Shown: piece by piece, positions 10,644 to 34,092 of the stretch | How positions within the stretch are numbered: position 1 is the stretch's first letter | How the letters are laid out: each line of letters starts with the position of its first letter | NCBI GenBank assembly: GCA_049590495.1 | Contig: JBAWCX010000161.1 | Location: 1 to 34,256 of the forward strand | Direction of reading: 5' to 3' | From: Candidatus Binatus sp. | GTDB taxonomy: Bacteria; Desulfobacterota; Binatia; Binatales; Binataceae | DNA length: 34,256 bases | The notes under the pieces: model-generated | The model's input: only the letters and a program-made list of their open reading frames with translations | Databases searched by the model: none | Told to the model about the DNA's origin: nothing | Position numbers and translations under genes: made by a program

Positions 10644-12557
10644 TCACCGCTCGAGCTTGCCGGAACCGAACATGACGCGATGCCAAATCTCGGTCGCGAG
10701 CGCCATCCAGACCGGGAATCCGTAATCACCCTCGCCGTTCCGATATGAGCCCATCAGAACTTGGAATCCGGACTTCAGTTTCGCCGCGTCGACCCATCCG
10801 CGTTGGGCGATTTCCAGCTTATCTAACGAGATCAGCGCCGCGTTGTGCTTGACGGATTCGAGGACAGGAGCATTGAAGCCCGCCTTGGTGACTCGCATAC
10901 GCACGGCTTCCGGCAAGATCCCTGTCATCGCGTTGCGAACGATATATCGTTCGTACCCGCCGCGGCGCAATTGATCGTTCGGCAATGCAAACGCGAATTC
11001 GATAAGCCGCCGATCGTTAAACGGCCGCCGCGTATCCTGGCCGATCCTTGCGATAGCCTGCTCCACCATCACGGCAGTTACAGGGAGCTCTGCGTGACGA
11101 AACAGTTCGTAAATCTCGCGGTGCGCGATTCCCCGCACTGGGGACCCTCGTTGCTCCGCGATCAGCCGCTCGTAGAGATCGGTACGGCGCACAAAGTCGG
11201 GCGTGACCCAATCCGGGTATGGCAGACGACCAGGGCGCAATCTCCACCGAGCGAATTCGCGAACGGCCGGCGGCAACAGCGGTATCGCCGCAGTCCTGAG
11301 AAATAACCGCAGCCGACCAGAGTGTGTCATCGACCTGGTTTCCGATTGATCGGCATCGATCCGTACCTGCCGAACCAGGGCAGCTATCCGCAAGGAGCGG
11401 AGCAGGTCGGCGTTGTCGTCGATGCAACCCCCGAACCATTCATCGCCGCCTTCGCCGGTCAGAGTCACGCGGGCACCCTTGCGCCTTCCGAGCCGGCGGA
11501 ACCCGAAGCCAGAGGTCAGATTCGGATAATTCGGAAAATCCCTGAACTGCCGGACCTGGGCGGCGAGATCCACCTCGCTGGAGGGCGTCGACAGCTCAAG
11601 ATTGAGCGCGACAGCGCACTTCGCTCCCACCGCCTTTATATATTCGCTCTCGTCGCACAAGAGTCCCGGGAACACTTGCGAGAACGACTCAAATCGATCG
11701 CATCCGGCCGCTCCCTGCTCTTGAAGAATTCGCGCGACGGATACGATCGACGACGAATCGAGGCCGCCACTCAAGTCCGATGCGACCATCCCCGCGGCGC
11801 GCAATCTGCAGCGGACGGCTTCCGTGAAGATCGAGAGGAAGTGGTTCGCATACTCGTCGTCATTTCGATGACGGATCTCGCGGGCGGGATCGAGGTCGTA
11901 GTAGCGTCGGGTGACGAGCCGGTCGCGGCCAACGATCAGCAGATGCGCGGCAAGGAGCTGGTGGATGGAACGATAGAGAGTCGGTTCGGCGCTGTCGGTC
12001 CGGTTGGCGAGGTATTCGCCGACCACCTCTTCATTCGGCTCGCATGGGACGTCGCAGTGGAAGAGTTGATGCAGCTCGGAGCCGCAGACGAATTTTTTGC
12101 GATCCGCATAGTAGTAGAACGGCTTCATCCCGGTCGGATCGCGCGCGCAGATGAGCGTTCTGGTCTGCGAATCCCAGATGACGATCGCGAAGTCGCCGAT
12201 CAGCTTGACGGCAAACTCTTCGCCCCAGCACTGGTAGCTGCGCAGCACGAGTTCCGCGTCGGTGTTGTTGCGGAGTTCGAGTCCCGCGTCAACCAGTTGC
12301 GGCCGCAAGTCGGTGCCGTTGTCGATTCGGCCGTCGAAGACGAGGCGGTAACGCGCCGCTTCGTCCGACCACGGCTGTTGCTCGTCGATCGCTTCGGGCG
12401 TCGCGTGCAACATGCGCTGGCCGAGCGCGACCGCGCCCTCGGCCCACATTCCTCCGCCGTCCGGCCCTCGATGGTTGACCGCGTCGAGCATCGCGGTGAT
12501 CGTACGGATTTCAACCGGTCGCCCGTCGCGGTTGAATATCGCGCCGATTCCGCTCAA
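10644..12557 (-). CDS. asparagine-synthetase-like lasso peptide cyclase (C protein)
   Basis: 637 aa with an AsnB-type fold. The N-terminus is (M)SGIGAIFNRDG with no Cys2 nucleophile. It has the PP-loop motif DLSGGLDSSSIV. It lies directly downstream of a PqqD/RRE gene. The start is TTG with no obvious SD. Confidence 0.85.
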   Translation of the reverse strand: MSGIGAIFNRDGRPVEIRTITAMLDAVNHRGPDGGGMWAEGAVALGQRMLHATPEAIDEQQPWSDEAARYRLVFDGRIDNGTDLRPQLVDAGLELRNNTDAELVLRSYQCWGEEFAVKLIGDFAIVIWDSQTRTLICARDPTGMKPFYYYADRKKFVCGSELHQLFHCDVPCEPNEEVVGEYLANRTDSAEPTLYRSIHQLLAAHLLIVGRDRLVTRRYYDLDPAREIRHRNDDEYANHFLSIFTEAVRCRLRAAGMVASDLSGGLDSSSIVSVARILQEQGAAGCDRFESFSQVFPGLLCDESEYIKAVGAKCAVALNLELSTPSSEVDLAAQVRQFRDFPNYPNLTSGFGFRRLGRRKGARVTLTGEGGDEWFGGCIDDNADLLRSLRIAALVRQVRIDADQSETRSMTHSGRLRLFLRTAAIPLLPPAVREFARWRLRPGRLPYPDWVTPDFVRRTDLYERLIAEQRGSPVRGIAHREIYELFRHAELPVTAVMVEQAIARIGQDTRRPFNDRRLIEFAFALPNDQLRRGGYERYIVRNAMTGILPEAVRMRVTKAGFNAPVLESVKHNAALISLDKLEIAQRGWVDAAKLKSGFQVLMGSYRNGEGDYGFPVWMALATEIWHRVMFGSGKLER

Positions 12558-13204: not shown

Positions 13205-14158
13205 ATGCAAGGCAGAGTTCGGCAGCCGGCACAAAAAAAGGCGCAGCAACTGCTGTCCGGATTATCACTCTCTAAAGACGAAATTCGTACTCGACTCGCG
13301 CAAGCCTCGAACCCTTCGTATTGGCGGGCTCTGTACCCTCCATTTTCCGTTCTGGAAAACTCTCCGCCGGTTCCCGACCTTCCCGTCTTCGACGCGTCGA
13401 CGGTCGCTCGCTATGGCAGCAGCCTGGATGAATGGGGCTACTTCCGAACGGACACGCCGATCGTGGATAGCCTTACGGCCTCGCTCCTGGAATGTACCGA
13501 GAGCATGCGCAGAGCTGGGTGGCCGCCGGCGTTCGCGTATGTATACGACCAGCTCTGGACGCTTTGGCGGATTGCGCCGATCACGCAGATTCTCACCGCG
13601 GCTCTAGGCCCAGGTTGCAGGTATATTCCGCACGGCTGGTGCCACTACGTGCAGCCGGTGCGCGGCGCCAGCGGATGGCCGCCGCACATCGACGGCAATC
13701 TGCCGAACCGGATGTCGATTTGGATTCCGCTTACCGACGCCACCATCGACAATGGCTGCATTTACCTGGTGCCGAAGGACTTGAATACCTCGGCGATCGG
13801 ACAGCGGCGCGAATTGCGCAAGGCCAGCAATCTGCAGATGCGCGAACTGCTCCAGCGCGGTCGGGCCATTCCGGCGCCCGCTGGGTCGATTCTCGGTTGG
13901 CAGTTCCGGCTTCTCCATTGGGGTTCGACGGCGCAAGGCCCGGGAAATCCGCGGGTCAGCCTGGTATTCGAATTCATCGCGGCGCACGAAGCGCCCATCA
14001 GGAACGAAGTGCCGCTCTATGAGCCTGCGGGTCCGCTCCCGGACTTGTCGCTCAGACTGAATTCCATCGGGCGCGCCATTCGCCAGTACATGAGGTACGA
14101 GCTGAGAATGCGGCGCTACGCCGAGCTTGCGAAAGAGCTCATGGCTCTAAGGACTTGA
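13205..14158 (+). CDS. phytanoyl-CoA dioxygenase (PhyH) family Fe(II)/2OG oxygenase
   Basis: GWPPHIDG (HxD), a distal His in LLHWGS, and IWIPLTDATIDNGCIYLVP are typical of PhyH. AAGGA SD lies 6 nt before ATG 13205. Confidence 0.75.
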   Translation: MQGRVRQPAQKKAQQLLSGLSLSKDEIRTRLAQASNPSYWRALYPPFSVLENSPPVPDLPVFDASTVARYGSSLDEWGYFRTDTPIVDSLTASLLECTESMRRAGWPPAFAYVYDQLWTLWRIAPITQILTAALGPGCRYIPHGWCHYVQPVRGASGWPPHIDGNLPNRMSIWIPLTDATIDNGCIYLVPKDLNTSAIGQRRELRKASNLQMRELLQRGRAIPAPAGSILGWQFRLLHWGSTAQGPGNPRVSLVFEFIAAHEAPIRNEVPLYEPAGPLPDLSLRLNSIGRAIRQYMRYELRMRRYAELAKELMALRT

Positions 14159-14395: not shown

Positions 14396-14977
14396 TCAGC
14401 CGACGTACCGGCGTATAGTACCGAGGCTTGGCTGCCTATCCATTTTCCAATCCGCACTAGGGCCGTTCTGATCCACGTAGTGCAGTGTCACCTGCGCGGC
14501 ATGTTCACCGGCGAAGGGTTCGCGCCAGTGGGCGCACTCGCACCCGCGATAGAGCAAGCCATCCCCGGGCTCCAACTCGATCGCCGAAGATCCTGCCGGT
14601 CCATTGATCCAGATCGGCCAGGGGCGTCGCGCTTGATAACCCAAGCACAGGGTTATGCTGATTTCACATGCAGGCCGATCTGTGTGCTTTTGAACAGCGT
14701 CGTCTTTGCTGTACATGCGAAAATACGAGAAGGTCGGAAACAGCTTCAAGTCTGTAGCCGACTCGACTTCAGGCAGCAAGTCGCCTAGCAGCTCGTCTAT
14801 GACGAAATCGTTTTTGCCCGCCAAGGCGTTGGGTACCTGGGAATCTCCACCCAGCATCGCGCCGTAGTCGGCCAACTTCCGTACGTACTTGTATAAAAGT
14901 GATAGACGCGGATCGGTCAGCAGCGACCGCCATACCGCATACTTCTGATGCGCGAAAGTATCTGCCAAGGCGGTCAT
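14396..14977 (-). CDS. Fe(II)/2-oxoglutarate-dependent oxygenase
   Basis: 193 aa with VQKHTDRPACEISITLCL (HxD), LEPGDGLLYRG..CAHWREPF (distal His/Arg) and QVTLHYV. It is the last gene of the precursor-kinase operon. Confidence 0.7.
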   Translation of the reverse strand: MTALADTFAHQKYAVWRSLLTDPRLSLLYKYVRKLADYGAMLGGDSQVPNALAGKNDFVIDELLGDLLPEVESATDLKLFPTFSYFRMYSKDDAVQKHTDRPACEISITLCLGYQARRPWPIWINGPAGSSAIELEPGDGLLYRGCECAHWREPFAGEHAAQVTLHYVDQNGPSADWKMDRQPSLGTIRRYVG

Positions 14978-15076: not shown

Positions 15077-16165
15077 TCAGTTCAAGGCCAGGTCGGCGGC
15101 TATGGCGTCGCGGACCAGGCGCAGCTTGGAAAGGTCGTTCGGCAGCGAGAGCAGCGCGGCAGGCACTGAATCCACGATACGTCGAGTGAAATGAAACTCA
15201 CGTTCGAGCATAGCGCGATCCGTGCTGTCCAGCCGGATGCTGTGCTTGACCAGCTTCATGAACGCCGCGTGCAGGGGCAAACGCTCAATCAGCGGCCCGC
15301 TGGTGGCAGCAGCGTCGTCATCGCCTCGCGTCAGAAAATAAATCCGCGCCACCGGAAGAGGCTCGAGCGGAAACGCGGTGCCGAAACTCGACGCCGGCAC
15401 GCGCCGCTTGGCGGTATATTCCGCGACCGGCTCACTATCGCCTCCCGGCTTCAGGAACTGTATCCCGTCGTCTCGAAGCTTGATGCTCGGATGCGACGAC
15501 CACGCCACGACGGCACCGCCTTGTTCATCGATCACCAGACAGTCGTCGGTAAGGAAGTCGCCGCCCCCGGCCGCGAGCTGGGCGGCAATGGTCGATTTGC
15601 CTGCCCCGGAATCTCCTGCGAACACGCAAACACCGGTGGCGTCGGTACGAACGGCGGCGGCATGCTGCACGTAGCGGCCCCGCAAGGCGACTACCGGGGG
15701 AATAACGTGATCGAGCAGGAGCGCCCGAATTATCAGATCCGACGCGGGCTGTCGGCGCGCGACGCACTTGATGTGGCGTCCGCCGCGATCGATCGTGAAA
15801 TCCGCGAATTCGTGGAAGCGGAGAAAATATCCATCGCGCGTCCGCGCCCGCGCTGTCCATGGCAGACCATCAGGCAGGCTCTGCCGCAGAAACCATTGCG
15901 ATGGCTCCGGAACGTCGCCGCTGACATCGCCAAGTTCGATAGCGATAAAATGATCGGAGTCACATGCAACGCCGGAAGGCTCGCCAAGTTCCGGAATCAG
16001 CGTGTCGCTGATCAGGGAGAACCCGCATAGCCGATAACGGTACTTCGGCCCGCTGATTCGATCGGGTCGAAAGGGCACGGCGGATCCACCAGCCTGCGAT
16101 TGTGTTCGACGCGGAGGTTCCTGCGGTGGAGGGTCTACAAAACGAATGGGCCCGTGACTTTTCAA
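15077..16165 (-). CDS. HPr-kinase-like (HprK-related) RiPP kinase
   Basis: It has the P-loop FAGDSGAGKSTIAAQLA followed by FLTDDCLVI, as in the HprK C-terminal domain. Its TTG start overlaps the stop of the precursor ORF. Confidence 0.8.
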   Translation of the reverse strand: MKSHGPIRFVDPPPQEPPRRTQSQAGGSAVPFRPDRISGPKYRYRLCGFSLISDTLIPELGEPSGVACDSDHFIAIELGDVSGDVPEPSQWFLRQSLPDGLPWTARARTRDGYFLRFHEFADFTIDRGGRHIKCVARRQPASDLIIRALLLDHVIPPVVALRGRYVQHAAAVRTDATGVCVFAGDSGAGKSTIAAQLAAGGGDFLTDDCLVIDEQGGAVVAWSSHPSIKLRDDGIQFLKPGGDSEPVAEYTAKRRVPASSFGTAFPLEPLPVARIYFLTRGDDDAAATSGPLIERLPLHAAFMKLVKHSIRLDSTDRAMLEREFHFTRRIVDSVPAALLSLPNDLSKLRLVRDAIAADLALN

Positions 16166-16317
16166 CCCTTCTTCTTGGACCCGGGGGCGTCGGGACCGCT
16201 GATAGATTTCGGGGTGGCAGTGATCTTTGTGACGTTGCCGTAGTCCACCAATGTGGGCGGAACGTACTTCGTCAACTTCTGTTTCTTCTTCGCGTCGGCC
16301 GAGCGATTTTCTTTCAC
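16162..16317 (-). CDS. lasso peptide precursor (A peptide), 51 aa, not in the supplied ORF track
   Basis: GTG 16317 is preceded by AGGAG (16325-16329) at 7 nt. Product: MKENRSADAKKKQKLTKYVPPTLVDYGNVTKITATPKSISGPDAPGSKKKG. The leader has Y-17, P-14, L-12, G-8 and T-2 relative to a cleavage site after Ala34. The stop overlaps the kinase start by 4 nt (TTGA). Confidence 0.75.
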   Translation of the reverse strand: MKENRSADAKKKQKLTKYVPPTLVDYGNVTKITATPKSISGPDAPGSKKKG

Positions 16318-18380: not shown

Positions 18381-21300
18381 TCAGGAGCCCTTGCCCTTGA
18401 GGGTTACTTTGTGCGGACTGGTCGGGTCGGAGCCGACGGTGCCGGCCAGCGTCGCGGTCTCGGTGACGGACTTGGCCGGCTGGAAGGTTACCGCGACGGT
18501 GCATGACGAGTTGCCCGCAAGCGTCGAGCCGCAGGTGCCGCCAGTGATCTTGAAGACGCCAGCATTGAGGCCGGTGACGGCGCTGTCAATCGACAGGGTC
18601 ATTGGCGACATGTTGGTGACGGTGGCGGTGAGCGTCTTCGACGACGTGCGCGGGACGGTGCCGTAGAGCAGCGACGTCGGCGCGACGGAGACCGGGATGG
18701 TCGCGCCGGTGGCCAGGGCTACATCGTAGGGCCCGAGCGAATCGGGACTGTCGGACACTGACAGCGTCGCCGATTCCGTTCCCAGCGCACCCGGCTTGAA
18801 GGTGACGGCCAGGGTGCACGAGGCCTGGGCCGCAAGCATGGCCGGCGCGACGGGGCAGGTGCTGCCGGTAATCGAGAAGTCGGCGGCGTTGGTCTCGCTG
18901 AAACTCTCGCTCAACGTCACCGGCCGCGACTGATTGTTGGTAACAGTGACATTGTTCGCCGCGCTAGAGCCGAACTTCACACTGCCGAACACCGAAGTGG
19001 TGCTCGAAGTACTCAAGCCGCCGATGCCGGTGCCGGAGAGCGCGACTTTCTGTGGGCTGGTCATGGAGTTGTCGCTGATCGCAAGCGTCGCGCTATGCAC
19101 CCCAAGCGAAGCGGGCGTGAATGCAACGCCAAGCGAGCAGGACTTACGAGGGGCGACCTTTACGGGAATCGCGCCGCAGGTTCCCATCCCGCTTAGCGCA
19201 TATTCACGATCTGACGTCGTCGCGCTCGAGATGATCAGCGGATGGGTCCTACCCTTGTTGGACACCGTCACGGTCTTGGCGGACGTCGCACCTACGGCCA
19301 CATCGCCGAACGCGAGCGAAGAAGCAGCCGACATCGAAGTAGTCGGGGTCGCGGCCGGCGTAGCAGTCATCGTCGTGGTGGCCGTCGTGGTTGCGGTCGC
19401 TGTAGCAGTCGCCGTTGCCGTCTGAGTCGCAGAGGCGGTCGCGGTTGTGGTCGGCGTTGCAGTCGATGTCGTGGTCGCCGTCGAAGTCTGAGTCGCGGTG
19501 GCGGTCGCGGTTATTGTCGGCGTCGAAGTTGCTGTGGCCGTCGCTGTCCGCGTCGAGGTGTTCGTCGACGTGGCAGTCAACGTTGGGGTGGCCGTCACAG
19601 TTGTGGTCGGCGATGCAGTTGATGTAGCGGTCGCAGTTGCCGTCTGAGTCGCCGTGGCGGTCGCCGTCGCCGTCTTTGTCGCGCTGGCGGTCGCGGTTAT
19701 GGTCGGCGTTGTGGTTGACGTGGCCGTCGCGGTCTGCGTCGAGATTATCGTCGCCGTGGTAGTTGGCGTCGCGCTCGATGTCGATGTCGAGGTCGCGGTC
19801 TTTGTCGCGCTGGCGGTCGCGGTCATGGTCGGCGTTGTGGTTGATGTGGCCGTCGCCGTTTGCGTCGAGGTTATCGTCGCCGTGGCAGTTGTCGTTGCTG
19901 TGGCAGTCGGCGTCGCGGTTGATGTAGCGGTGGCGGCCTTAGTCGCAGTTGTGGTCGGCGTCGCAGTTGATGTCGCAGTTGGCGTCGCGGTCGATGTCGA
20001 TGTCGAGGTCGCCGTCGCAGTCTTCGTCGCGCTGGCGGCGGTCGCGGTTGTGGTCGGCGTTGCGGTTGAGGTCGCGGTCGCCGTTGCCGTCTGAGTTGCC
20101 GTGGCGGTCGCCGTCGCCGTGGCAGTTAACGTTGCACTGTTAGTCGGCGACGCCGTCTTTGTCGCGCTGGCGGTCGCAGTCGCGGTCGGCGTTGCGGTTG
20201 ATGTGGCGGTCGCCGTTTGCGTCGAGGTTATCGTCGCCGTGGCAGTGGTCGTTGCTGTGGCAGTCGGCGTTGTGGTTGATGTCGAGGTCGCCGTTGCCGT
20301 CGCAGTCTTCGTCGCGCTGGCGGTCGCAGTTGCGGTCGGCGTTGCGGTTGATGTGGCGGTCGCGGTTGATGTGGCGGTCGCGGTTGTGGTCGGCGTCGCA
20401 GTCGATGTGGCAGTCGCCGTCTGAGTCGCAGTTGCGGTCGCCGTGCGCGTCGCGGTTGATGTCGCGGTCGCAGTGGCGGTCGCCGTGCTCGTGGAAGTGG
20501 ATGTCGGGGTCGGTGTCAATGTCGGGCTGGGATTTGGCGCGCCGGTGTAAGCGGTGGCGAACTTGGTCATGTCGGGGCTGCCCCATCCTGTCACCAGGTC
20601 GAAGCCCGCGCCGGCGGGATATCCCGTCACGCCATTGAAGGTGTTGTTGCCGCTGGTTACATCGATCAGCCCGTTGCCGGCCGCGCCCGCCTTGGCCAGC
20701 GCGTAAGTGGTCGGATTGATGAGACCGACACGCGCGGTGCCGGCTTTTTCGGCGATCACCCGGGTAAAGCCCGCCCATAACGGAGCCGACAGGCTGGTGC
20801 CGCCCCAGCAGCACTGGATAATTGCCTTGCCCGACGAGTCGGCGCCGATGAAGACGCCGGGCGACGACGCGATCATCGAGATATCGGGAATGTCGCGCAT
20901 ACCGTCGTTGAAGGTGCCGGTCTGCCACGACGGCTTCGAAAATATGTTACTGACGCCGCCGCCGCTCGAGTCCCACGCCGTTTCGATTCCGCCGGGCGCA
21001 ACCCCGATCACGCTGGTGTCGTTACCGGAGCTATTGAATTGAGGCGAGAACTGCGTTCCGCCGACGGCGGTGACGTGCGGACTGGCCGCCATCTCGCTCG
21101 GATTCAGGCTGGTGCCGGTTATGCAGCCATTGTCGACCGGATTGTATTGCAGCCCGGCCGCGCCCCAATCGCCCGAGCTTATGAACACCGATTGGCCCTG
21201 CGCCGCTGCTTGCGAAAACAACGTATCCAGTCCGGTGAAAAATGAATTCGTCGAGTTGCAGAAGATAAAACTGATGCTAACCGCGCCGCAGATATTGTCG

Positions 21301-22331
21301 GTGATCGCCGACGAGATCGAGGTGTAGAGGTCCGAGTTGACGTAAACGTGAATCGGCGTCGCCGGCGCTGTTGCGTGCGAGTAGTCGATATCCAGGTTCG
21401 TCTCGGTCTCGTCGCCGGTGGTGCCGGGCGAGGTGCCGGTGGGCAGAACGCGCGTGAGGTTCATCGCGGGGAAACCAAAGTTCGAATCGAACAGCACCGG
21501 CGCCGCATCGAGATAATCCGAGTCCTCGGCCAGCGCCACGCAATCGGGCGACGCGGTGCCGCTGTTGCCCCCAGCTATCAGCGGAGCTTCGTTGTAGAAC
21601 GTCTCGATGTCAAAAGGACCAAAGGCGCTCGATGAACCAGACTTGGCGCCCGGATCGAGCGGCGCACTCTCGTTTTCGTTGGACGGGCTCGGATCGGCCG
21701 TATCAGCAAACGCGAGCACCAGCTCGGTCGGCGAATGAGCGGTCGAGGGACTGATCGGGGGCGTCCGATGAAGTCCCGCGGGCGCGAGCGCGTGCATGTT
21801 GTCCAGTCCCCGGATGTTCGCAATCAGGCCGTCCAGTTCGGCCGGTACCGACGGATCGGATGTGTTCCCGAAATTCGCTCCATCGGTGACAATCTCGGTG
21901 GCAAAGGCCGCCTCGGCGGTCGCGACGTTGCCCTTGACCGCGATCGTTCGCGAGCGGCCATCGACTTTGACGATCGCAAAGCCCGCATCCGCGAGCCACT
22001 TCTTTACTGCCGCGATTTGCGCCGCGGTCGGGCCGAAGCGCTGGTTGAATTCCGTAGCGCTCAGCCAGTGATGGTACTGGGGCGAGTTGGGATCCTGCTG
22101 GGCGGCCAACAACTCCTCGAGCGCAGCCTGGTTGTGCAGGCCCAAAACTATTGTGAGTTCGAGCGGGGCGCTGCCGTCGGCCCGCATCGCTGCCAGATTG
22201 ACGATATCCGCGGGATGGTTCCCGTGAATTTTTGACGGCCCCGCAGCGTAAGACGATCCAGCCAGGGCCATGCCGCCCACCAGCACGCACACCACCGCCA
22301 CGACCCGAAGCGGGACTCGTCCGATTGACAT
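18381..22331 (-). CDS. secreted sedolisin (peptidase S53) with pro-kumamolisin activation domain, ~395-aa Thr/Ala-rich linker and three C-terminal Ig-like (choice-of-anchor-D/HYDIN-like) domains
   Basis: It has a signal peptide (VVAVVCVLVGGMALAGSSYA) and a pro-domain (PLELTIVLGLHNQAALEELLAAQQDPNSPQYHHWLSATEFNQRFGP). S53 motifs are ETNLDIDYSHATAP, FISSGDWGAAG and GGTSLSAPLWAGF. Three ~100-aa repeats follow the pattern FG.V..G...TVTV.N....L......F...G.TC...L....SC...V.F.P...G...A.L. Confidence 0.85.
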   Translation of the reverse strand: MSIGRVPLRVVAVVCVLVGGMALAGSSYAAGPSKIHGNHPADIVNLAAMRADGSAPLELTIVLGLHNQAALEELLAAQQDPNSPQYHHWLSATEFNQRFGPTAAQIAAVKKWLADAGFAIVKVDGRSRTIAVKGNVATAEAAFATEIVTDGANFGNTSDPSVPAELDGLIANIRGLDNMHALAPAGLHRTPPISPSTAHSPTELVLAFADTADPSPSNENESAPLDPGAKSGSSSAFGPFDIETFYNEAPLIAGGNSGTASPDCVALAEDSDYLDAAPVLFDSNFGFPAMNLTRVLPTGTSPGTTGDETETNLDIDYSHATAPATPIHVYVNSDLYTSISSAITDNICGAVSISFIFCNSTNSFFTGLDTLFSQAAAQGQSVFISSGDWGAAGLQYNPVDNGCITGTSLNPSEMAASPHVTAVGGTQFSPQFNSSGNDTSVIGVAPGGIETAWDSSGGGVSNIFSKPSWQTGTFNDGMRDIPDISMIASSPGVFIGADSSGKAIIQCCWGGTSLSAPLWAGFTRVIAEKAGTARVGLINPTTYALAKAGAAGNGLIDVTSGNNTFNGVTGYPAGAGFDLVTGWGSPDMTKFATAYTGAPNPSPTLTPTPTSTSTSTATATATATSTATRTATATATQTATATSTATPTTTATATSTATATSTATPTATATASATKTATATATSTSTTTPTATATTTATATITSTQTATATSTATPTATATASATKTASPTNSATLTATATATATATQTATATATSTATPTTTATAASATKTATATSTSTSTATPTATSTATPTTTATKAATATSTATPTATATTTATATITSTQTATATSTTTPTMTATASATKTATSTSTSSATPTTTATIISTQTATATSTTTPTITATASATKTATATATATQTATATATSTASPTTTVTATPTLTATSTNTSTRTATATATSTPTITATATATQTSTATTTSTATPTTTATASATQTATATATATATTTATTTMTATPAATPTTSMSAASSLAFGDVAVGATSAKTVTVSNKGRTHPLIISSATTSDREYALSGMGTCGAIPVKVAPRKSCSLGVAFTPASLGVHSATLAISDNSMTSPQKVALSGTGIGGLSTSSTTSVFGSVKFGSSAANNVTVTNNQSRPVTLSESFSETNAADFSITGSTCPVAPAMLAAQASCTLAVTFKPGALGTESATLSVSDSPDSLGPYDVALATGATIPVSVAPTSLLYGTVPRTSSKTLTATVTNMSPMTLSIDSAVTGLNAGVFKITGGTCGSTLAGNSSCTVAVTFQPAKSVTETATLAGTVGSDPTSPHKVTLKGKGS
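19340..20525 (-). repeat. in-frame low-complexity coding repeat (Thr/Ala/Ser/Pro, about 395 codons) inside the S53 gene
   Basis: The translation is almost only T, A, S and P with occasional Q, K and I. Longer units recur three times (TTTATATITSTQTATATST.TP..TATASATKTA). The DNA is an imperfect GCN/ACN repeat that creates long artefactual VAVAV ORFs on the other strand. Confidence 0.85.
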
Positions 22332-26234: not shown

Positions 26235-26348
26235 GGTAACCAGGAATTGTATTGTTGCGCGTGCAAGTGATAGGGCATGAGCTTGGGACTGCCAGTCCCC
26301 CGGTATTTGGAGTAACCCATCCAGATGAGAGTCGAGCGCAGTCAAAAC

Positions 26349-27359
26349 ATGCTTGTCACGCTGACACGAACGGGTATTTCAACCCACACCACGCCATCGC
26401 GATTGCACTTAGCCCGTGAGCATTTCGATCAACACAACTATCTGCGGATACCAGGTTTCATCGAACCCGCGATGCTCAGGGTGATTCAGCTTTCTCTGCA
26501 CAACGCTGCGTTCAAAATAAGAGAGAACGAGGTCGGGCGCGATCTAACGCTTGCGGACAACCCGTTGACCAATGTCTTTAAAATCCTGATGAACGATCCG
26601 AAGCTGTTCCGACTGATTCGACGGGTGACCGGGAGCGGTCCCATTGGATGCTTTGCTGGCAGGTTGTACCAGATGGTCGCGCGGCAGGGGCTAGCGTTCA
26701 CCTGGCACGATGACATGCTCAACGATCGAAAGGTCGCGATCTCGATCAACCTGAGTGACGCAGGCTACCGCGGCGGCACGCTGCAGATTCGCGATACCTC
26801 CCGCGGCGTGCGCGAGGATGTTCCGAACCTGGGTTTTGGCGACGCAATCATCTTCCGCGTTGCCGAGCATCTCGAACACCGCGTCACCCCGGTCGTAGGA
26901 AGAATTCCGAAGACCGCCGTTACCGGATGGTTCTGCTCGCGACCTAGATACTCCACGATTCATCGCGAGATGGTCGCCTTGTCCGAGTCAGCGATCGCTG
27001 TGCGCGCCGTCCGGAAACACGAGAGTCTCGCGTTGCCCAAACCAGACGACACAGTCAAACTCCCGAGCGCCGTCGTTTCTCAAACCTCGGGGCGCGAGAC
27101 GTTTGTAGCAAACATTGGCACCGCGATGTGCTACGGCTTGAATCAAACCGGCAGCCGGGTCTGGGAGCTCCTGGCACAAGGCTACGGGATGCGCACGATT
27201 GCAGGTACCATCGCAAGAGAATACGGGGTCCCGCGCCGCGAAGTGGAACATGACGTCCTCGCGCTGGCCCATCAGCTCGCACAACGCGATCTGATCAAGG
27301 TAGTTCGCAACACTGCCCCGCGACGAGTACGCATGATAGCAGGGGCGGCCAGCCGCTAG
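26349..27359 (+). CDS. fusion protein: prolyl-4-hydroxylase-like 2OG-Fe(II) oxygenase + C-terminal PqqD/RRE domain (array copy 1)
   Basis: N-terminal domain: FTWHDDMLNDRKVAISINLSDAGYRGGTLQI...GDAIIFRVAEHLEHRVTPV..R.T..GWF (HxD...H, P4H-like). C-terminal domain: ETFVANIGTAMCYGLNQTGSRVWELLAQGYGMRTIAGTIAREYGVPRREVEHDVLALAHQLAQRDLIKVV, a PqqD pattern. The start is taken at MLVTLTR by homology with the paralog; the ORF opens at 26325. Confidence 0.8.
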   Translation: MLVTLTRTGISTHTTPSRLHLAREHFDQHNYLRIPGFIEPAMLRVIQLSLHNAAFKIRENEVGRDLTLADNPLTNVFKILMNDPKLFRLIRRVTGSGPIGCFAGRLYQMVARQGLAFTWHDDMLNDRKVAISINLSDAGYRGGTLQIRDTSRGVREDVPNLGFGDAIIFRVAEHLEHRVTPVVGRIPKTAVTGWFCSRPRYSTIHREMVALSESAIAVRAVRKHESLALPKPDDTVKLPSAVVSQTSGRETFVANIGTAMCYGLNQTGSRVWELLAQGYGMRTIAGTIAREYGVPRREVEHDVLALAHQLAQRDLIKVVRNTAPRRVRMIAGAASR

Positions 27360-27366
27360 ACAAGCG

Positions 27367-27399
27367 ATGCTTGCCAAACTGACACGAATCGGTACTTCT
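27367..27399 (+). pseudogene. 5' stump (11 codons, MLAKLTRIGTS) of array copy 2 of the oxygenase-RRE gene
   Basis: The junction ..gcgATGCTTGCCAAACTGACACGAATCGGTAC aligns with the starts of copy 1 (ATGCTTGTCACGCTGACACGAACGGGTAT) and copy 3 (ATGCTTGCCACGCTTACACGACTTGGGAT). Homology stops about 15 nt before the stop codon of the membrane-protein gene. Confidence 0.7.
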
Positions 27400-27413
27400 T
27401 GCTCCGGTGCAGG

Positions 27414-29090
27414 CTACTTCAGCTCCCATGCTGAGGTGGTGGGTCCAAATTCGGGAGTCAGATCCTGGACCTTGTGATAGTGTGCGTGCAGATAGTCGCG
27501 GACTGGTTGAATGTGATCGCTTGAAGCGCCGCAAAGTGACTCGTCAAGGTCACCATTCCACAAGATAAATCGCGGCGCGTGAAGCTCGAGGTCGCGAAGC
27601 ACGTCGTCGACCTGTTCCGGGCGGGTGAACTCGCATGGCGTCAGCCACCAGACCTTGGTGGGATTCCTAAGACCCAGCCAAAAGTAAAGATTGCTGCCGA
27701 GCGCCTGAAACACGTAGTCACCCTGATGAGTTCGCGCGGCGAACCATTGAAGCTGGGAAAGCGGGTCGTCAACCGAGAGCGCGATGCGCCCGCTCGGGGT
27801 TTCGATGGAGTAATACCAGTTACGCTGCGACGCGCGAATGTCGGAAACCATTGCGAGTACCGCAATCACCGTCAGGATTCGTATGACAATCACTCCCAGC
27901 TTCGTTTCGATACTCCATACTGCGACCAGGAACGCAGGGAGCGAAACTACTGCGATCCTCCAGTAGCCCGCCGAATTGACGATCGACGCGAACATCGCCG
28001 CGCCGACGAAGTTCAGTAGAACTATGCGGCGCCAGGTATCCCCGCGCGACGATTCAGGCGAGGGCTTGAACCAGATTGCTGACACAATGTAGACCCACGG
28101 GACAAGCAACCCCAATATCAGGTCGCGAACCAAGTGAAAGTCGCGATGCATCGCGCTCGATACGATTTCGATCAATACGTAGTTCGACCATCCGGCGCCC
28201 AACCCCTCACTCCAATATTTGAGGGGGAAGACTATAGTTGAATTGAAGAATGCTGTCGGGCCGGCTAGCCACGAAAAGTAAGCTACACACGCGGCGACGA
28301 TAATCGCGGTGGGAGTGAGGAAGCTCGCGCATTCTTTAATGAGAGTGGTTGTGTCTCTCCCGTCTTTCCAAGCCTCCCAGACCAGAAAACCGAGAACTCC
28401 GACCGTGGCGAACGCACCATGGTGCTGCGCGAAACATGTCGCCACGCCGATGAGTGCTCCCGCAACAAGAAGGCGCGAGCGCGATCGCTCACGGGCCAGG
28501 ATTGCGATCGCAAGCACAATCGTGAGAGCGGCGTACCAGTGCGGCGACGCGTCCAGGTACGTACGATACGCGGCGAACAGAAACAGAAATCCGGAAAATA
28601 TCGCGGCCTCACGCGACATCAACATGCCGCCAAGCCAAACTGCGGCCGCGAACAAACCTAGCCCCAGTACTACTAGGCAGGCATTGGGTATCCATGCCCG
28701 CGCGCCGAATCGGTCGATTAGAAATGCGTAGAGGTAATCGATGCCCGGCAGGTAGTACTCAAAGAAGTCGCGGTAGATTACCTGTCCCGACGAGAGCCTG
28801 GCTGCGGACGCTAGGAATATCTGGTCATCGTAACCACGCGCCATCGGAATTGCGGGCCGAACGAATAGATTGAGAACCAGGTAGGCCGCTGCAAATAGAA
28901 ATGCGGCGAGTAGTCCCCAGCGGCGGCGCCCGAAGAATCGCGTCGAACTTCGGGACTCGGCGTTCATTGTCGCTCCGCTTCGATGCAAATGATTGAAGCG
29001 CCTCACGCGTGTCGGCGGCCAACCTTTCACATTTATCGCAGTTGAACAATGCGGAACCGCTGCCCGCTGGTTGGACTCGGCTCGCGACAT
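27414..29090 (-). CDS. GT-C-fold (ArnT/PMT-like) membrane glycosyltransferase candidate
   Basis: Many TM segments. An acidic motif sits in the first loop (ARGYDDQIFLASAARLSSGQVIYRDF), as in lipid-linked-sugar transferases. There is a C-terminal soluble domain. The likely true start is ATG 28967 (MNAESRSS..RRRWGLLAAFLFAAAYL). Confidence 0.65.
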   Translation of the reverse strand: MSRAESNQRAAVPHCSTAINVKGWPPTRVRRFNHLHRSGATMNAESRSSTRFFGRRRWGLLAAFLFAAAYLVLNLFVRPAIPMARGYDDQIFLASAARLSSGQVIYRDFFEYYLPGIDYLYAFLIDRFGARAWIPNACLVVLGLGLFAAAVWLGGMLMSREAAIFSGFLFLFAAYRTYLDASPHWYAALTIVLAIAILARERSRSRLLVAGALIGVATCFAQHHGAFATVGVLGFLVWEAWKDGRDTTTLIKECASFLTPTAIIVAACVAYFSWLAGPTAFFNSTIVFPLKYWSEGLGAGWSNYVLIEIVSSAMHRDFHLVRDLILGLLVPWVYIVSAIWFKPSPESSRGDTWRRIVLLNFVGAAMFASIVNSAGYWRIAVVSLPAFLVAVWSIETKLGVIVIRILTVIAVLAMVSDIRASQRNWYYSIETPSGRIALSVDDPLSQLQWFAARTHQGDYVFQALGSNLYFWLGLRNPTKVWWLTPCEFTRPEQVDDVLRDLELHAPRFILWNGDLDESLCGASSDHIQPVRDYLHAHYHKVQDLTPEFGPTTSAWELK

Positions 29091-29117
29091 TTACAAGCGC
29101 AAACCAGTAGACTAAAA

Positions 29118-29201
29118 TTCGCACAACACGATCTGGTCAAAGTAGTTCGCAACACTGCCCTGCAAAAAATCTGTACGATATCTGCGTCGGCCTGCAGCTA
29201 A
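29118..29201 (+). pseudogene. 3' stump (27 codons + stop) of array copy 2 of the oxygenase-RRE gene
   Basis: It encodes FAQHDLVKVVRNTALQKICTISASACS-stop, against LAQRDLIKVVRNTAPRRVRMIAGAASR-stop at the end of copy 1. The following spacer and the ATGCTTGCC start of copy 3 are also colinear with the copy1/copy2 junction. Confidence 0.75.
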
Positions 29202-29208
29202 CCAACAG

Positions 29209-30180
29209 ATGCTTGCCACGCTTACACGACTTGGGATTTCATCTGACGTCACGCCATCCCAATTGCGCGCGGCCCGTGAGCATTTCGACCAGCACAACTA
29301 TCTGCGAATGCGAGGCTTCATCGATCCCGGCCTCTTCCGCGTGATTCAGCGGTACCTCCGCGGCGCGGTGTTCGAAAGACAATTCTGGAACAGTGGGCAC
29401 GATCTCACGATCTCGAATAGCCCCCTGGCCGATGTCGTCCACGTTCTGATGAACGATCCAAAATTGCTCCGGCTAGTTGGGCAAGCCACGGGATGCGGTC
29501 CAATCGCATCCTTTAAGGGCCGCATTTACCGAATGGTCGCGCGCAAGGGACTGAGGTTCGATTGGCACCCTGACATAAAAAACGATCGGAAAGCCGCGAT
29601 CTCCGTCAACTTGAGCGACGCGGAATATGGCGGCGGGACCCTCGAAATTCGCGACAATTCCAGCGGCGTACGCGAGGTAGTTCCGAACCTCGGGCCGGGC
29701 GACGCGGTAATTTTCCGTGTCGCAGAGCATCTCGAGCACCGTGTCACCCGAGTGACGGGGAAGGTTCCGAAAACCGCCATCGCCGGATTCTTCTGCTCAC
29801 GACCACGGTACCGTTCAGTACATCGGGAGTTGGTGGCCCGGTCCGAATCCGCTATCGCTGCAGGTGCCGGCCGAAAAAAGCGGCTCGCGTTTCCCTCACC
29901 AAATGACGTCGTGAAAATCTCGGCCGCAGTCATATCTCAAACCGCACGGCGCGAGACCTTTGTGGCGAACGTCGCAACCGCAATGTGTTACGGCCTGAAT
30001 CAAACCGGCGGCCGAATTTGGGAACTCTTCGCCGAGGGCCTCGCGATGCGCTCGGTAGCAGACACCATCGCACGCGAGAATGGCGCGCCGCGTCGCGACG
30101 TCGAGCGGGACGTCCTCGCACTCGCCCGCCAACTCGCGCAACGTGATCTGATCAAGGTAGTTCGCGCCCAGTTAGATTAG
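29209..30180 (+). CDS. fusion protein: prolyl-4-hydroxylase-like 2OG-Fe(II) oxygenase + C-terminal PqqD/RRE domain (array copy 3)
   Basis: 323 aa and colinear with copy 1. It has FDWHPDIKNDRKAAISVNLSDAEYGGGTLEI, HLEHRVTRV, and the RRE part ETFVANVATAMCYGLNQTGGRIWELFAEGLAMRSVADTIARENGAPRRDVERDVLALARQLAQRDLIKVV. Confidence 0.8.
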   Translation: MLATLTRLGISSDVTPSQLRAAREHFDQHNYLRMRGFIDPGLFRVIQRYLRGAVFERQFWNSGHDLTISNSPLADVVHVLMNDPKLLRLVGQATGCGPIASFKGRIYRMVARKGLRFDWHPDIKNDRKAAISVNLSDAEYGGGTLEIRDNSSGVREVVPNLGPGDAVIFRVAEHLEHRVTRVTGKVPKTAIAGFFCSRPRYRSVHRELVARSESAIAAGAGRKKRLAFPSPNDVVKISAAVISQTARRETFVANVATAMCYGLNQTGGRIWELFAEGLAMRSVADTIARENGAPRRDVERDVLALARQLAQRDLIKVVRAQLD

Positions 30181-30374: not shown

Positions 30375-31571
30375 ATGAATTCTCCCGTATCACGGACGCC
30401 TGACACCGAGCGCGAGCTGTTGCTGCGATGCTGCGCGGCGTCCGGGCCGATGACGGATCGCGCCGCGATGGGGGAGTGCGCCGGGCGCCGCGTCGATTGG
30501 GATCGATTTCTCGCGCTGGCCGATCGTAACCGCGTCACGCCAATGGTGGGCGCGCGTCTCGGCGCCGAAGGCATTGCCAATCCTCCTCCATACGTCGCCC
30601 GCGCGCTCCGGTTCAGCTACGAGATCAACGCACTGCGAAACAACTATCGCGCCGGCTGCGTAACGGAAATCGTCGATTCCTTTGCGGCCGGCGCCGTCCC
30701 CGCGATTGCGATCAAGGGTCCGGCGCTTGCGATTGCTGCGTACGGTGACGTGGCAATGCGGGTGTTCGACGACCTGGATTTCATGGTGCGGCTTGCGGAT
30801 CTGCGGCGTGCGGCCAAGGCGCTGGAGCGAGTCGCCTACGCGTCGGCAGTCTATCGGCCCGAGGTTGTCGAAAGCGGATTTTTTCCCGACACGTCGCTCG
30901 ACTTCTCACGCGAGGACAGCGTCGTGGACCTCCATTGGGCGTTGTCACCTGGATACTTCCCGTTTGCTCCCGAAGGCGAGCAAGTTTGGAATCGTACCGT
31001 CGAGATCGAGCTGCTCGGCAGGCGCGTCCGCGTGCTCGGTCCCGCCGACTCGATTCTGTTTCAGGCCTGCCATGGCTCCAAGCACGGCTGGATGACGCTC
31101 TCCCAGATCTGCGACTTCGCCCACCTGCTCGCGACCGCCACGACCGTCAACTGGACCAGCCTTCTCGACGACGCCCGGCGGACGCAAAGCCTTAGAATGG
31201 TCCTGCTCGCGGTGCACTTGACGCATTCGCTCGAGCTTTGCGAGGTGCCCGCCGAATTGCTCGACGCTGCCCGCCGCGATTCGCACATCGCGTCGCTCAG
31301 CCGGCGCGTTACGCAGGGTATTTTCGATTCGAGGCGTGCGGTTAAGTTGGACGATTGGTCGATAGCACTCGGAACCATCGAATCGATGCGCGGCCGCGCC
31401 AGATACATCGTGCACCGCATGATTACCCCCAAGATGAGCGACCGCGCGCTGATGCCCTTGCCGCGCGCGCTATACCCGCTGTACTACCTGGCGCGTCCGC
31501 TGCTAGTGGCGATCAAGCATCGCCAACGGATGTTTGGCAAACGCGAGACTGCTGGGCTGCCGCGGATTTGA
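30375..31571 (+). CDS. uncharacterised nucleotidyltransferase family protein (NTP_transf_5 / PF14907-like) of the kind found in kinase-containing lasso clusters
   Basis: 398 aa with DWDRFLALADRNRVTPMV, AIKGPALAIAAYGDVAMRVFDDLDFMVRLADL and VVDLHWAL, the pattern of this family. Confidence 0.7.
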   Translation: MNSPVSRTPDTERELLLRCCAASGPMTDRAAMGECAGRRVDWDRFLALADRNRVTPMVGARLGAEGIANPPPYVARALRFSYEINALRNNYRAGCVTEIVDSFAAGAVPAIAIKGPALAIAAYGDVAMRVFDDLDFMVRLADLRRAAKALERVAYASAVYRPEVVESGFFPDTSLDFSREDSVVDLHWALSPGYFPFAPEGEQVWNRTVEIELLGRRVRVLGPADSILFQACHGSKHGWMTLSQICDFAHLLATATTVNWTSLLDDARRTQSLRMVLLAVHLTHSLELCEVPAELLDAARRDSHIASLSRRVTQGIFDSRRAVKLDDWSIALGTIESMRGRARYIVHRMITPKMSDRALMPLPRALYPLYYLARPLLVAIKHRQRMFGKRETAGLPRI

Positions 31572-32076: not shown

Positions 32077-32601
32077 TCAGGGATTTTCAACTGGAACTCG
32101 CTCGATACCATCAGGCTTCCCAACACAATGATCAGCGACGGGCATCGGTGCGTAGCTTCGATGTTCACCTTCGCCGGTAACAATTCTGTCGCCACATTCA
32201 AGCCATGCATGACCGGTCAGAGCATCAGCTGAATTTTTTGCGACTCCCAGTCGGATTTGGCTGCTGACGCCGCGACGCGCGAGCATCTCGCGCCCGGCGA
32301 TCGCTCTCACGAGGCAATTCTTAGCAGTCGGTACGATACGGCCGGCCGTCTCGACCGCCCAGCCGATTCTTGCAGCATCCGTATCGGCAAACACCGCCTC
32401 AGTCTGGCGCGCCACGGGTTGCAGAATTTTGCGGATCGGAACGAACATCACCGTAATTCGGGCCTTGATGACCGAGATTATGGCCGATGCGAGCAGCCAG
32501 CGATCAGGCGCCGCCAGCTTGAAGAATTTACGCAACCGCGTTTGCATGAGGAGACCTGTCATTGACCTTAGACGTACTAGGTCATCAGTGGCAACTCCCA
32601 T
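32077..32601 (-). CDS. lasso peptide B2 protein (transglutaminase-core-like Cys protease, leader peptidase)
   Basis: AKNCLVRAIAGREMLARRGVSSQIRLGVAKNSADALTGHAWLECGDRIV is the Cys...His...Asp core pattern of stand-alone B2 proteins, preceded by a hydrophobic helix. An alternative start at ATG 32562 has a better SD. Confidence 0.8.
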   Translation of the reverse strand: MGVATDDLVRLRSMTGLLMQTRLRKFFKLAAPDRWLLASAIISVIKARITVMFVPIRKILQPVARQTEAVFADTDAARIGWAVETAGRIVPTAKNCLVRAIAGREMLARRGVSSQIRLGVAKNSADALTGHAWLECGDRIVTGEGEHRSYAPMPVADHCVGKPDGIERVPVENP

Positions 32602-32872: not shown

Positions 32873-33422
32873 CGTGCTCCTTGACTCGGGATCGGGCACC
32901 GGGATACCAGAGCTCTTCGCGCTGAAAGCCCTCGCGTCGCGTGTCTAAGCGATAGACGCCAGCGGACTCACGCAGCTGGAGCGCGAAATCTTCGCGGCTA
33001 ACGGATACGCGGATCGCGCGGTTTGCATTAAAGGGTTATCAACTCGCGTCAAGCTGCCGGAGAAAGTAAACGTCATCATCGGCGACTTGATCGGGCGCTT
33101 CGGGATTGACGGTGGACTAGTCGAGTATTTCGCCTACGCGCGCCATCGGATGGCGCAGCCCGACGTGCGCCCGGTTCCATCCAGGGTTGATCTGTATATT
33201 GCCCCGGTCGAAGCACCACAGACCTGCCGGAAGTTGATTTCTGGAAAACGTCTCCCGCGGGCCGGCGAGATCCGCATCTTTACCCGGACCGAGTCGCCAC
33301 CATGCACCGCGGTCGGCGGATCAACCGGAAAGAATACCCGTGTAGCTCTCTCCTTGAGCCGCCGGACACGGAAGCAGCGCGGTGCCTCACTCCGCGATCG
33401 CGCTGGGCGAAGCGTAGAGTAA
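32775..33422 (+). pseudogene. PRMT-like class I SAM methyltransferase gene with in-frame TAA (32946-32948) and degenerate 3' part
   Basis: A single frame encodes LSLILDEHREYLNNRPRVSAFERAISEVVRPGDVLLDSGSGTGIPELFALKALASRV(stop)AIDASGLTQLEREIFAANGYADRAVCIKGLSTRVKLPEKVNVIIGDLIGRFGIDGGLVEYF... This gives the H..ML.D..R...Y..AI motif, motif I (LD.G.GTGI) and post-I/II motifs. Resemblance fades after about 33250. Confidence 0.6.
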
Positions 33423-33582
33423 TTCTTCGAACATTCAGGGTGGGTCGTTGTTGACCAGGGCGCCTAAGCCCAACCTCTACCGTCGCTATCTGCGCAGCCG
33501 CGGATCGCTGGAGCTGGGCTGCATAGGAATGACCCGGGTGTTCAGCGTCTTCGCCCGACCGCTCCTCGGCATACTCGCTGTG

Positions 33583-34092
33583 AGCGAACTCCATGGCTTG
33601 ATTGCGAAGAAAAGTCCGCCACGATGGTCCCGGCCGTCGGCTTCGTGGAGGCATGTAGCGCGACACGGTGGCTTCGGAGACGCTGAAACCGAGCATCAGA
33701 AGTTCACCGTGGATCCGTGGCGCACCCCACAGAAAGTTGTCGCCGGCCATCCGTGCGATCAGATGACGGACGTCCCTGGAAACCCGCGGACGCCCACCGC
33801 GCCAGCGACCCCGAGATCGATATCGCCAAAGCGTCGACCAGCCGTCACGACGCCAGCGCAAGACCGTCTCGGGCTGGACGATGATCAGGCTCTCGCGCCA
33901 TTGGGGCCACCAACGCGAGAACAAAATCCAAAAAAGCCGATCCCAACGGCGAAAGCACGGGCGACGAGTTCCGCTGCGCTCCAGCACTGCAATTTGATGG
34001 CGCAGGGCGATCCACTCCAACAGCAACGCGGTGAGAGTTCGAGGTTCGCCGTTTGGTACCTCCGCGAGTGATTCGCTTGTCGGCATCCTCAC
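33583..34092 (-). mobile_element. 5' half of an rve/integrase-core IS transposase gene, truncated before the catalytic core
   Basis: ..ALRHQIAVLERSGTRRPCFRRWDRLFWILFSRWWPQWRESLIIVQPETVLRWRRDGW..RGGRPRVSRDVRHLIARMAGDNFLWGAPRIHGELLMLGFSVSEATVSRYMP...PSWRTFLRNQAMEFA is the conserved N-terminal half. The rest of ORF 33280..34092 is unrelated Arg-rich sequence. Confidence 0.7.

Follow-up and report, generated by a model that had tools for sequence, protein, structure and literature searches.

Predicted 2-oxoglutarate oxygenases fused to a lasso-type recognition element in a lasso peptide gene cluster of “Candidatus Binatus”

The closest precedent for oxidative tailoring of a lasso peptide by an Fe(II)/2-oxoglutarate (2OG) enzyme is CanE, from the canucin A pathway of Streptomyces canus. 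CanE hydroxylates the linear canucin precursor, not the folded lasso, and CanB1 supplied in trans strongly stimulates the reaction (PMC9266682). It is the only Fe/2OG lasso hydroxylase in the reviews that we searched, and it needs a separate B1 protein. Here we analyze a 34,256-nucleotide (nt) stretch of DNA from “Candidatus Binatus” sp. (assembly GCA_049590495.1, contig JBAWCX010000161.1), hereafter called the window, in which two genes in the region 26349 to 30180 each encode a predicted 2OG oxygenase joined to a recognition element (RRE) for the precursor of a peptide made by the ribosome and modified after translation (RiPP). We refer to this combination of an oxygenase with a fused RRE as ox-RRE, and to the homologous loci compared with the window by L-numbers (L001 and so on). 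The ox-RRE type is a recurrent enzyme class that, judged from its genes, probably oxidizes the lasso peptide precursor.

Fe(II)/2OG tailoring of a linear lasso precursor with the assistance of a B1-type RRE, as in the canucin system, is also what we propose for the window. The can RRE is a separate protein shared with the B2 peptidase, whereas in the window the RRE is fused to the oxygenase and is additional to a stand-alone B1. By its description in a review, CanE makes β-hydroxy-Asp at the C terminus. The window has several paralogs, and related clusters have up to five. The ox-RRE fusion would make a partnership like that of CanE and CanB1 permanent.

The other systems to be compared each share some features with the locus. 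The lasso B1 proteins (TbiB1, PDB 5v1u and 5v1v; TfuB1, PDB 6jx3) have a PqqD-type winged helix, and the window precursor carries a YxxPxL motif; YxxP is the published lasso recognition sequence (PMC12710340). Here, in contrast to the B1 proteins, the RRE is the C-terminal part of an enzyme of 320 to 340 amino acids (aa). Enzymes of the prolyl hydroxylase domain/prolyl-4-hydroxylase (PHD/P4H) type, such as Tpa1/OGFOD1, Pseudomonas PPHD, and human PHD2, share the double-stranded β-helix fold and the HxD…H triad, but have folded proteins as their substrates (Rps23, EF-Tu, HIF) and lack an RRE. In the RRE-fused RiPP enzymes of the RRE-Finder surveys, the principle is shared: the RRE holds the substrate by its leader and brings it to the catalytic domain. 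The passages of PMC12710340 searched by term name carbamoyltransferase, glycosyltransferase, Memo-like, and DUF59 fusions, and no 2OG-FeII_Oxy_3 fusion. Finally, lasso clusters of the paeninodin/pseudomycoidin type, together with co-localized LPP RiPPs, likewise have a kinase beside the precursor and an NTP_transf_5 protein. Those clusters are from Bacillota, with no oxygenase-RRE fusion mentioned in the literature searched, whereas the Binatia cluster adds PHD-like, PhyH, and GT-C genes. The initial annotation, which was made from the letters of the window, knew of no characterized RRE-fused P4H-type hydroxylase in lasso biosynthesis, and the literature that we searched indeed describes neither a PHD-fold oxygenase with a fused lasso-type RRE nor tandem arrays of such fusions. 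Both the tailoring of lasso precursors by Fe/2OG enzymes and the fusion of RREs are known principles; their combination in this form, and the arrays, are new within that literature.

Architecture of the ox-RRE proteins

Both ox-RRE genes are intact open reading frames (ORFs), and their products are colinear from end to end, with 67% identity over 320 aa (BLASTP E value of 8e-161), in agreement with their earlier description as colinear paralogs. Identity is 64% in the oxygenase domain and 74% in the RRE. Pfam recognized both halves of both proteins: 2OG-FeII_Oxy_3 (aa 112 to 195) at 42.4 and 37.3 bits, with a gathering cut-off of 27, and PqqD (aa 252 to 316) at 48.4 and 39.1 bits, with a gathering cut-off of 23.4, which bears out the C-terminal PqqD/RRE first read from the translations. 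In a family alignment of 19 members (42 to 93% identity, both window copies included), W119-H120-x-D122 and H177-R178 are invariant, K/R188-T189 is conserved, and many RRE positions are likewise invariant. By the alignment, K/R188 stands 11 residues after H177; the basic residue that binds the C5 carboxylate of 2OG is expected about 10 residues after the distal His. The strand (V/A)AIS(I/V)NLSDA.Y.GGTL.I is found in both copies and, with the invariant triad, upholds the N-terminal features that the initial annotation had recognized. All five ox-RRE copies of the Melainabacteria locus L022 keep HxD…H, as read from their translations. The family N terminus, MLAxLTR, favors the ATG at 26349 over the upstream ATG at 26325, as had been assigned.

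An AlphaFold2 (AF2) model built on the family alignment (pLDDT of 82.7, pTM of 0.80) supports the two-domain fold that had been put forward, with a β-rich N-terminal oxygenase domain, a long helix (aa 201 to 219), and a C-terminal unit of three strands (242 to 247, 250 to 255, 261 to 264) and three helices (266 to 276, 281 to 292, 296 to 312) that forms a PqqD-type winged helix. When the N-terminal domain was compared with the PDB by Foldseek, Tpa1/OGFOD1, Pseudomonas putida prolyl-4-hydroxylase, PHD2, and PiuC were all matched with a probability of 1.00 and at 15 to 22% sequence identity; target TM scores are 0.6 to 0.73 for the first three (up to 0.73 for the P. putida enzyme). The N-terminal half is, by its model, a PHD/P4H-type double-stranded β-helix.

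For the C-terminal half, the family profile searched against the PDB gave TbiB1 (5v1u) at an E value of 2.7e-16, followed by 9x90_B, TfuB1, and 9x8z_B, all ahead of PqqD. The fused RREs are 33 to 35% identical to TbiB1 and 26 to 28% identical to the stand-alone B1 of the window. At 37.0 and 31.6 bits they remain below the 80-bit cut-off of the NCBIfam model lasso_PqqD (NF033536), such models having been made for stand-alone chaperones; the NCBIfam scan of the two copies gave no specific family besides these subthreshold matches. By sequence, the C-terminal half is a lasso-B1-type RRE, for which leader binding is predicted.

Both intact copies are under purifying selection: the ratio of nonsynonymous to synonymous substitution rates (dN/dS) is 0.15 for copy 1 (ox1) against its L011 ortholog and 0.29 for copy 2 (ox2) against its L010 ortholog. 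Between the two paralogs, dN is 0.149 in the RRE and 0.254 in the oxygenase domain.

Genomic contexts and the proposed substrate

A word-indexed search yielded 64 clusters of relatives, nearly all with two domains, and those with names belong to “Candidatus Binatus” (phylum Binatota). An exhaustive profile search gave 463 representatives at 50% identity (E value ≤ 1e-30); by our own reading of lengths and ranges, the best 150 of the 463 comprise about 60 full-length fusions, most of the others being oxygenase-only proteins of ~205 to 240 aa. A metagenome scan returned mostly stand-alone PqqD genes and about eleven oxygenase or full-length fusion matches (L025 to L035).

The ox-RRE genes, or the oxygenase domain, are linked to lasso genes in the window and in L010, L011, L020, L022, L023, L024, and L107/L108. 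In L022, B1 and a TPR protein precede five consecutive ox-RRE genes; after these come C, the precursor A, and genes for a kinase, for an NTP_transf_5-methyltransferase, and for an ABC exporter. In L107/L108, B1-B2-B1′-TPR is followed by an ox+ox-RRE protein of 545 aa, two ox-RRE genes, an ox gene, and then C, while in L023 an ox domain precedes C. The Acidobacteriota locus L024 comprises B2-B1-C-A together with a methyltransferase and a kinase-ox fusion, and in L109/L110 an NTP_transf_5-ox fusion and an ox gene accompany a PRMT-like methyltransferase. A stand-alone B1 coexists with the fusions in the window, L022, L024, and L107. The database survey called for by the initial annotation thus finds the fusion beside lasso genes in arrays of three to five copies (L022, L107/L108), but most Binatia homologs are unlinked.

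The oxygenase domain also occurs fused to lasso accessory domains, namely, HPr-kinase-like (L024 9182-10616), NTP_transf_5 (L109 1886-3817), and oxygenase plus RRE (L107 6043-7680); the kinase-ox copy of L024 has a frameshift. The variety of these fusions indicates, at the level of gene content, domain shuffling inside the lasso accessory gene set.

The window itself holds the substrate candidate. A leader motif, Thr at position −2, an acidic residue within core positions 7 to 9, and genes for C, B1, and B2 are all found (Table 1). The leader sequence K-Y-V-P-P-T-L-V-D-Y-G-N-V-T-K-I-T-A of the 51-aa precursor fits Y-x-x-P-x-L-x3-G-x5-T-x, with the junction …KITA/TPKSISGPD, and D9 of the core is the likely ring-forming residue. 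Leader-motif scans of the window found no other ORF that resembles a precursor; L010, L011, and L105 carry orthologs of this one.

We consider it probable that the ox-RRE genes encode accessory tailoring enzymes of a kinase/nucleotidyltransferase-type lasso pathway and carry out leader-guided oxidation of the linear precursor. The relatives in other phyla, with three to five tandem ox-RRE genes next to lasso C, support lasso tailoring. We infer that the RRE binds the leader, that the enzymes act on the precursor while it is linear, that they hydroxylate it, and that they are site specific. The C-terminal RRE would bind the YxxPxL motif in the leader, the same motif as is read by B1, and would bring the linear core up to the Fe(II)/2OG center of the N-terminal PHD/P4H-fold domain. 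A core side chain would then be hydroxylated (most likely) or otherwise oxidized, ahead of leader removal by B1/B2 and ring closure by C. Paralogs with similar RREs and more diverged catalytic domains would act on different positions (“one leader, several sites”), an idea that fits both the stronger conservation of the RRE than of the catalytic domain and the recurrence of arrays with three to five paralogs.

Several findings weigh against this interpretation. At least 13 Binatia-type loci with long flanks (L001, L003, L004, L006, L014 to L016, L018, L019, L021, L025, L026, and L028) have no lasso gene within 10 kb, and since this applies to most Binatia homologs, the lasso link is not universal. 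All five metagenome loci with several kilobases of flank are orphan or paired with mem2, the membrane protein gene that lies between the two copies in the window. The complete chromosome OY970324.1 carries ox-RRE at 4.17 Mb, and its orthologous lasso cluster (A, kinase, PhyH, B2, methyltransferase, B1, and C) spans 0.61 to 0.64 Mb, a separation given as ~1 Mb. A 42%-identical ox-RRE gene is located directly downstream of a TldD/PmbA-like protease pair (L007 6495-10699, L008 3567-7771), with no lasso genes on the contig, which suggests from gene order that the family is also used in a different peptide pathway. The cluster of the window is rearranged, with B2 20 kb away from C, B1, and A. Searched against the PDB, the family profile of the oxygenase half yielded nothing usable, EctD appearing only at an E value of 0.039, and thus no sequence-level relative with a known substrate. 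Finally, L022 combines five ox-RRE genes with a core (GTRSRGKETTRRSA) that has no Pro and five basic residues, and a “prolyl” label based on the fold is not transferable family-wide.

With most close homologs unlinked to lasso genes, the enzymes might serve another substrate, for example together with the neighboring GT-C glycosyltransferase or in a second co-localized RiPP pathway, the proximity to lasso genes being incidental. The pairing of orphan ox-RRE genes with divergent mem2 homologs or a GT87/MptA-like gene, described below, and the TldD/PmbA pair ahead of the 42%-identical relative are what would be expected if this were so. An RRE/kinase/NTP-transferase pathway can, moreover, co-localize with a lasso cluster and yet make a separate RiPP (PMC13381572), and because of that case we keep this alternative in view as an unlikely one. 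No second precursor was found in the window or near the orphan ox-RRE genes, even with a loosened leader motif, and in the lasso clusters of three unrelated lineages the ox-RRE genes have B1 on one side and C on the other. The RRE is nearest to lasso B1 proteins. Furthermore, OY970324.1 carries the orthologous lasso cluster besides its orphan copy, and one metagenome-assembled genome (MAG) holds both the cluster-linked copy of L011 and the orphan copy of L018. A built-in leader reader would explain why copies can sit far from the cluster.

If the lasso precursor is the substrate, the 2OG-dependent reaction could still be something other than hydroxylation, such as desaturation, cross-linking, decarboxylation, or epimerization. 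The triad and fold specify only an Fe/2OG oxygenase, the oxygenase half has no close characterized relative, and RiPP 2OG enzymes perform macrocyclization and backbone cleavage (works listed in PMC12710340; abstract of PMC12636437). We regard a nonhydroxylating reaction as quite improbable nevertheless, given that HxD (versus the HxG/A of halogenases) in a PHD/P4H-like fold is mostly linked with hydroxylation, and that the only characterized lasso Fe/2OG enzyme in the literature searched is a hydroxylase.

As for the residue to be hydroxylated, the window core, TPKSISGPDAPGSKKKG, contains 3 Pro, 4 Lys, and 1 Asp; the initial annotation had the Pro and Asp counts right but listed three Lys. The Binatia cores share P2, K3, P8, P11, and K15/K16, and among Pro, Lys, and Arg only Lys occurs in all four cores compared. 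Lys and Pro are the leading target candidates in the window. The term “prolyl-hydroxylase-like” of the initial annotation holds for the fold, as the Foldseek matches to Tpa1, P4H, and PHD2 attest, but not for prolyl specificity; we would not name the function “prolyl hydroxylase,” because the L022 core is Pro-free and Lys alone of the candidate types is present in all four cores. The precursors of the window and L010 end in …GSKKKG, without the C-terminal Ser-Cys-Leu tail of the L011, L105, and Acidobacteriota L024 precursors.

The fused RRE might, alternatively, act as a second B1-type chaperone for the B2 peptidase, with the oxygenase domain regulatory or inactive; in the window, B2 does lie close to the ox-RRE genes and well away from the stand-alone B1. 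That role is highly improbable: a stand-alone B1 adjoins C in the window and in every related cluster, the triad is invariant, the oxygenase domain is under purifying selection, and relatives consisting of the oxygenase without an RRE share those clusters. A fused RRE as the sole B1 was ruled out because the window has a stand-alone B1.

The gene mem2 encodes a 558-aa membrane protein. Its AF2 model (pLDDT of 80.5, pTM of 0.82) is best matched in Foldseek by the oligosaccharyltransferases STT3/PglB/AglB and then by AftA and ALG9, and the protein is therefore predicted to have the GT-C fold. The family has 22 members, of which only the most distant carry a PMT_2 annotation. Homologs of mem2 are divergently upstream of orphan ox-RRE genes in L006 (8159-9730) and L028 (6391-7809), and a GT87/MptA-like protein follows ox-RRE in L001 (11048-12508); GT-C-type neighbors of ox-RRE recur even at loci without nearby lasso genes. 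In L024, two large membrane-protein ORFs after the kinase-ox fusion are GT87-like by eye only.

The pairing of ox-RRE with GT-C genes hints at hydroxylation followed by glycosylation. It is tempting to extend this to a scheme, which we rate as a long shot, in which arrays of RRE-fused hydroxylases put several hydroxyls on the lasso precursor, GT-C glycosyltransferases O-glycosylate them outside the cytoplasm, and leader-reading paralogs also serve as satellite genes up to ~1 Mb away. If true, it would be a bacterial RiPP counterpart of the hydroxylysine/hydroxyproline glycosylation of collagen or extensin. The ox-RRE family points to lasso peptides that are heavily oxidized, and perhaps glycosylated as well, in phyla without cultured members (Binatota, Melainabacteria, Acidobacteriota). 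A family of leader-binding oxygenases in arrays of up to five would give portable, leader-addressed C–H oxidation catalysts for peptide engineering, and its paralogs would be a natural test case for the evolution of site selectivity after duplication. Genome mining based on clusters can miss tailoring genes that are distant from the core genes.

Remnants of an ox-RRE array

The initial annotation described a tandem array with the stump of a third copy and possibly a fourth. The paralogs and array remnants are real, but the two copies are not adjacent: they lie 1.85 kb apart, with mem2 on the opposite strand between them. The stump also holds up, as two separate pieces (Table 1). The score of the 5′ piece against the start of copy 2, and that of the 3′ piece against the 3′ end of copy 1, were each reached by 0 of 2,000 shuffles, and the 5′ piece is found after ox1 in L011 too. 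The suggested fourth copy right after 30180 was rejected, since 306 of 2,000 shuffles reached its score when it was aligned locally, as DNA, with the copies' 5′ ends; the stretch after copy 2 is frame-broken in L010.

Because the 5′ and 3′ pieces flank mem2, the arrangement would therefore derive from an older head-to-tail array with 7-nt spacers, in which the body of one copy was lost to the mem2 gene. Alternatively, the junction between two copies may have been duplicated around mem2.

A split lasso cluster and its surroundings

The lasso cluster of the window is in two pieces split over 22 kb, with C to the precursor at 10.6 to 16.3 kb and B2 at 32 kb. In the related MAG locus L011, ox1-mem2-NTP5-PhyH-ox193-A-kinase-PhyH-B2-B1-C are contained within 11 kb (ox193 is a shorthand label only, for the 193-aa protein), while the layout of L010 is that of the window at ~95% identity. 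From the compact arrangement of L011, the window and L010 are therefore taken to derive by rearrangement from a compact cluster in which ox-RRE was present already.

Table 1. Features of the window (34,256 nt)
Feature	Position	Strand	Evidence or remark
Lasso cyclase C (Asn_synthase + GATase domains)	10644..12557	-	Pfam; homologs in lasso clusters L011, L105, L022, L024
Stand-alone B1 (PqqD/RRE), 92 aa	12594..12872	-	Pfam PqqD, E value 1.8e-13
PhyH-family Fe/2OG dioxygenase, further cluster oxygenase	13205..14158	+	Pfam PhyH; conserved in L011, L105
193-aa protein (ox193)	14396-14977	-	No Pfam match; conserved in L011
HPr-kinase-like protein	15077..16165	-	Weak Pfam Hpr_kinase_C; directly downstream of precursor
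Lasso precursor, 51 aa: MKENRSADAKKKQKLTKYVPPTLVDYGNVTKITA / TPKSISGPDAPGSKKKG	16162..16317	-	ORF list, motif scans
mem1, multi-pass membrane protein, 565 aa	24309..26006	+	343 nt upstream of copy 1; conserved in L010 (95%)
ox-RRE copy 1, 336 aa	26349..27359	+	Pfam 2OG-FeII_Oxy_3 and PqqD, triad, AF2 model, Foldseek, TbiB1 match, dN/dS
Copy 1 oxygenase domain (~aa 1-205)	26349-26963	+	
Copy 1 triad codons H120, D122, H177	26706-26708; 26712-26714; 26877-26879	+	
Copy 1 RRE (~aa 236-320)	27054-27308	+	Helical linker between oxygenase domain and RRE
5′ stump of further copy (ATG CTT GCC AAA CTG ACA CGA…, MLAKLTRIGTS; ATGCTTGCCAAACTGACACGA…)	27367..27398	+	Direct repeat D7; 7 nt past copy 1 stop
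mem2, GT-C-fold glycosyltransferase-like membrane protein, 558 aa	27414..29090	-	AF2, Foldseek; in the place of the putative lost middle copy
3′ stump of further copy, encoding FAQHDLVKVVRNTALQKICTISASACS and stop	29118..29201	+	Direct repeat D7; ends 7 nt before copy 2 ATG
ox-RRE copy 2, 323 aa	29209..30180	+	Architecture as copy 1; Pfam 2OG-FeII_Oxy_3 and PqqD
Copy 2 triad codons H120, D122, H177	29566-29568; 29572-29574; 29737-29739	+	
Copy 2 RRE	about 29911-30165	+	
NTP_transf_5 nucleotidyltransferase-like protein	30375..31571	+	Pfam, E value 1.2e-53; 195 nt downstream of copy 2
Leader peptidase B2, transglutaminase-like	32077..32601	-	NCBIfam lasso_biosyn_B2 NF033537, 82 bits (cut-off 33); Pfam Transglut_core3

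Two inverted repeats tie the two pieces of the lasso cluster together and mark the event that separated them, either a rearrangement or a duplication followed by reciprocal loss. The repeat 12953-13069/32756-32872 (87%) is made up of N-terminal pieces of a PRMT-like methyltransferase gene; L105 has this gene intact, with B2 and B1 on either side, and in L024, where it is intact too, it comes after the precursor. The repeat 15359-15448/31954-32043 (79%) derives from part of the kinase-like gene. The right end of the window carries a transposase-like fragment (33280-34092, minus strand) with weak IS481/IS3 matches, and a 54-nt inverted repeat (80%; 9493-9546/34164-34217) joins 9.5 kb with 34.2 kb. 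The fragment and the 54-nt repeat are possible traces of mobile-element activity behind the rearrangement.

Orthologs of the kinase-like gene adjoin the precursor in L011, L105, L022, and L024. The NTP_transf_5 gene is present in the corresponding clusters of L010, L011, L020, and L022 and is fused to the ox domain in L109/L110. The 193-aa protein, which has an H-T-D motif, is possibly a further small oxygenase. For mem1, no Pfam match was obtained, nor a significant profile match to the mem2 family (probability of 5%). Between the two halves of the lasso cluster lies a gene (18381-22331, minus strand) for a 1,316-aa sedolisin-type protease with a Pro-kumamolisin activation domain, a Thr/Ala/Ser/Pro repeat linker of ~440 aa (50 overlapping copies), and C-terminal Ig-like domains.

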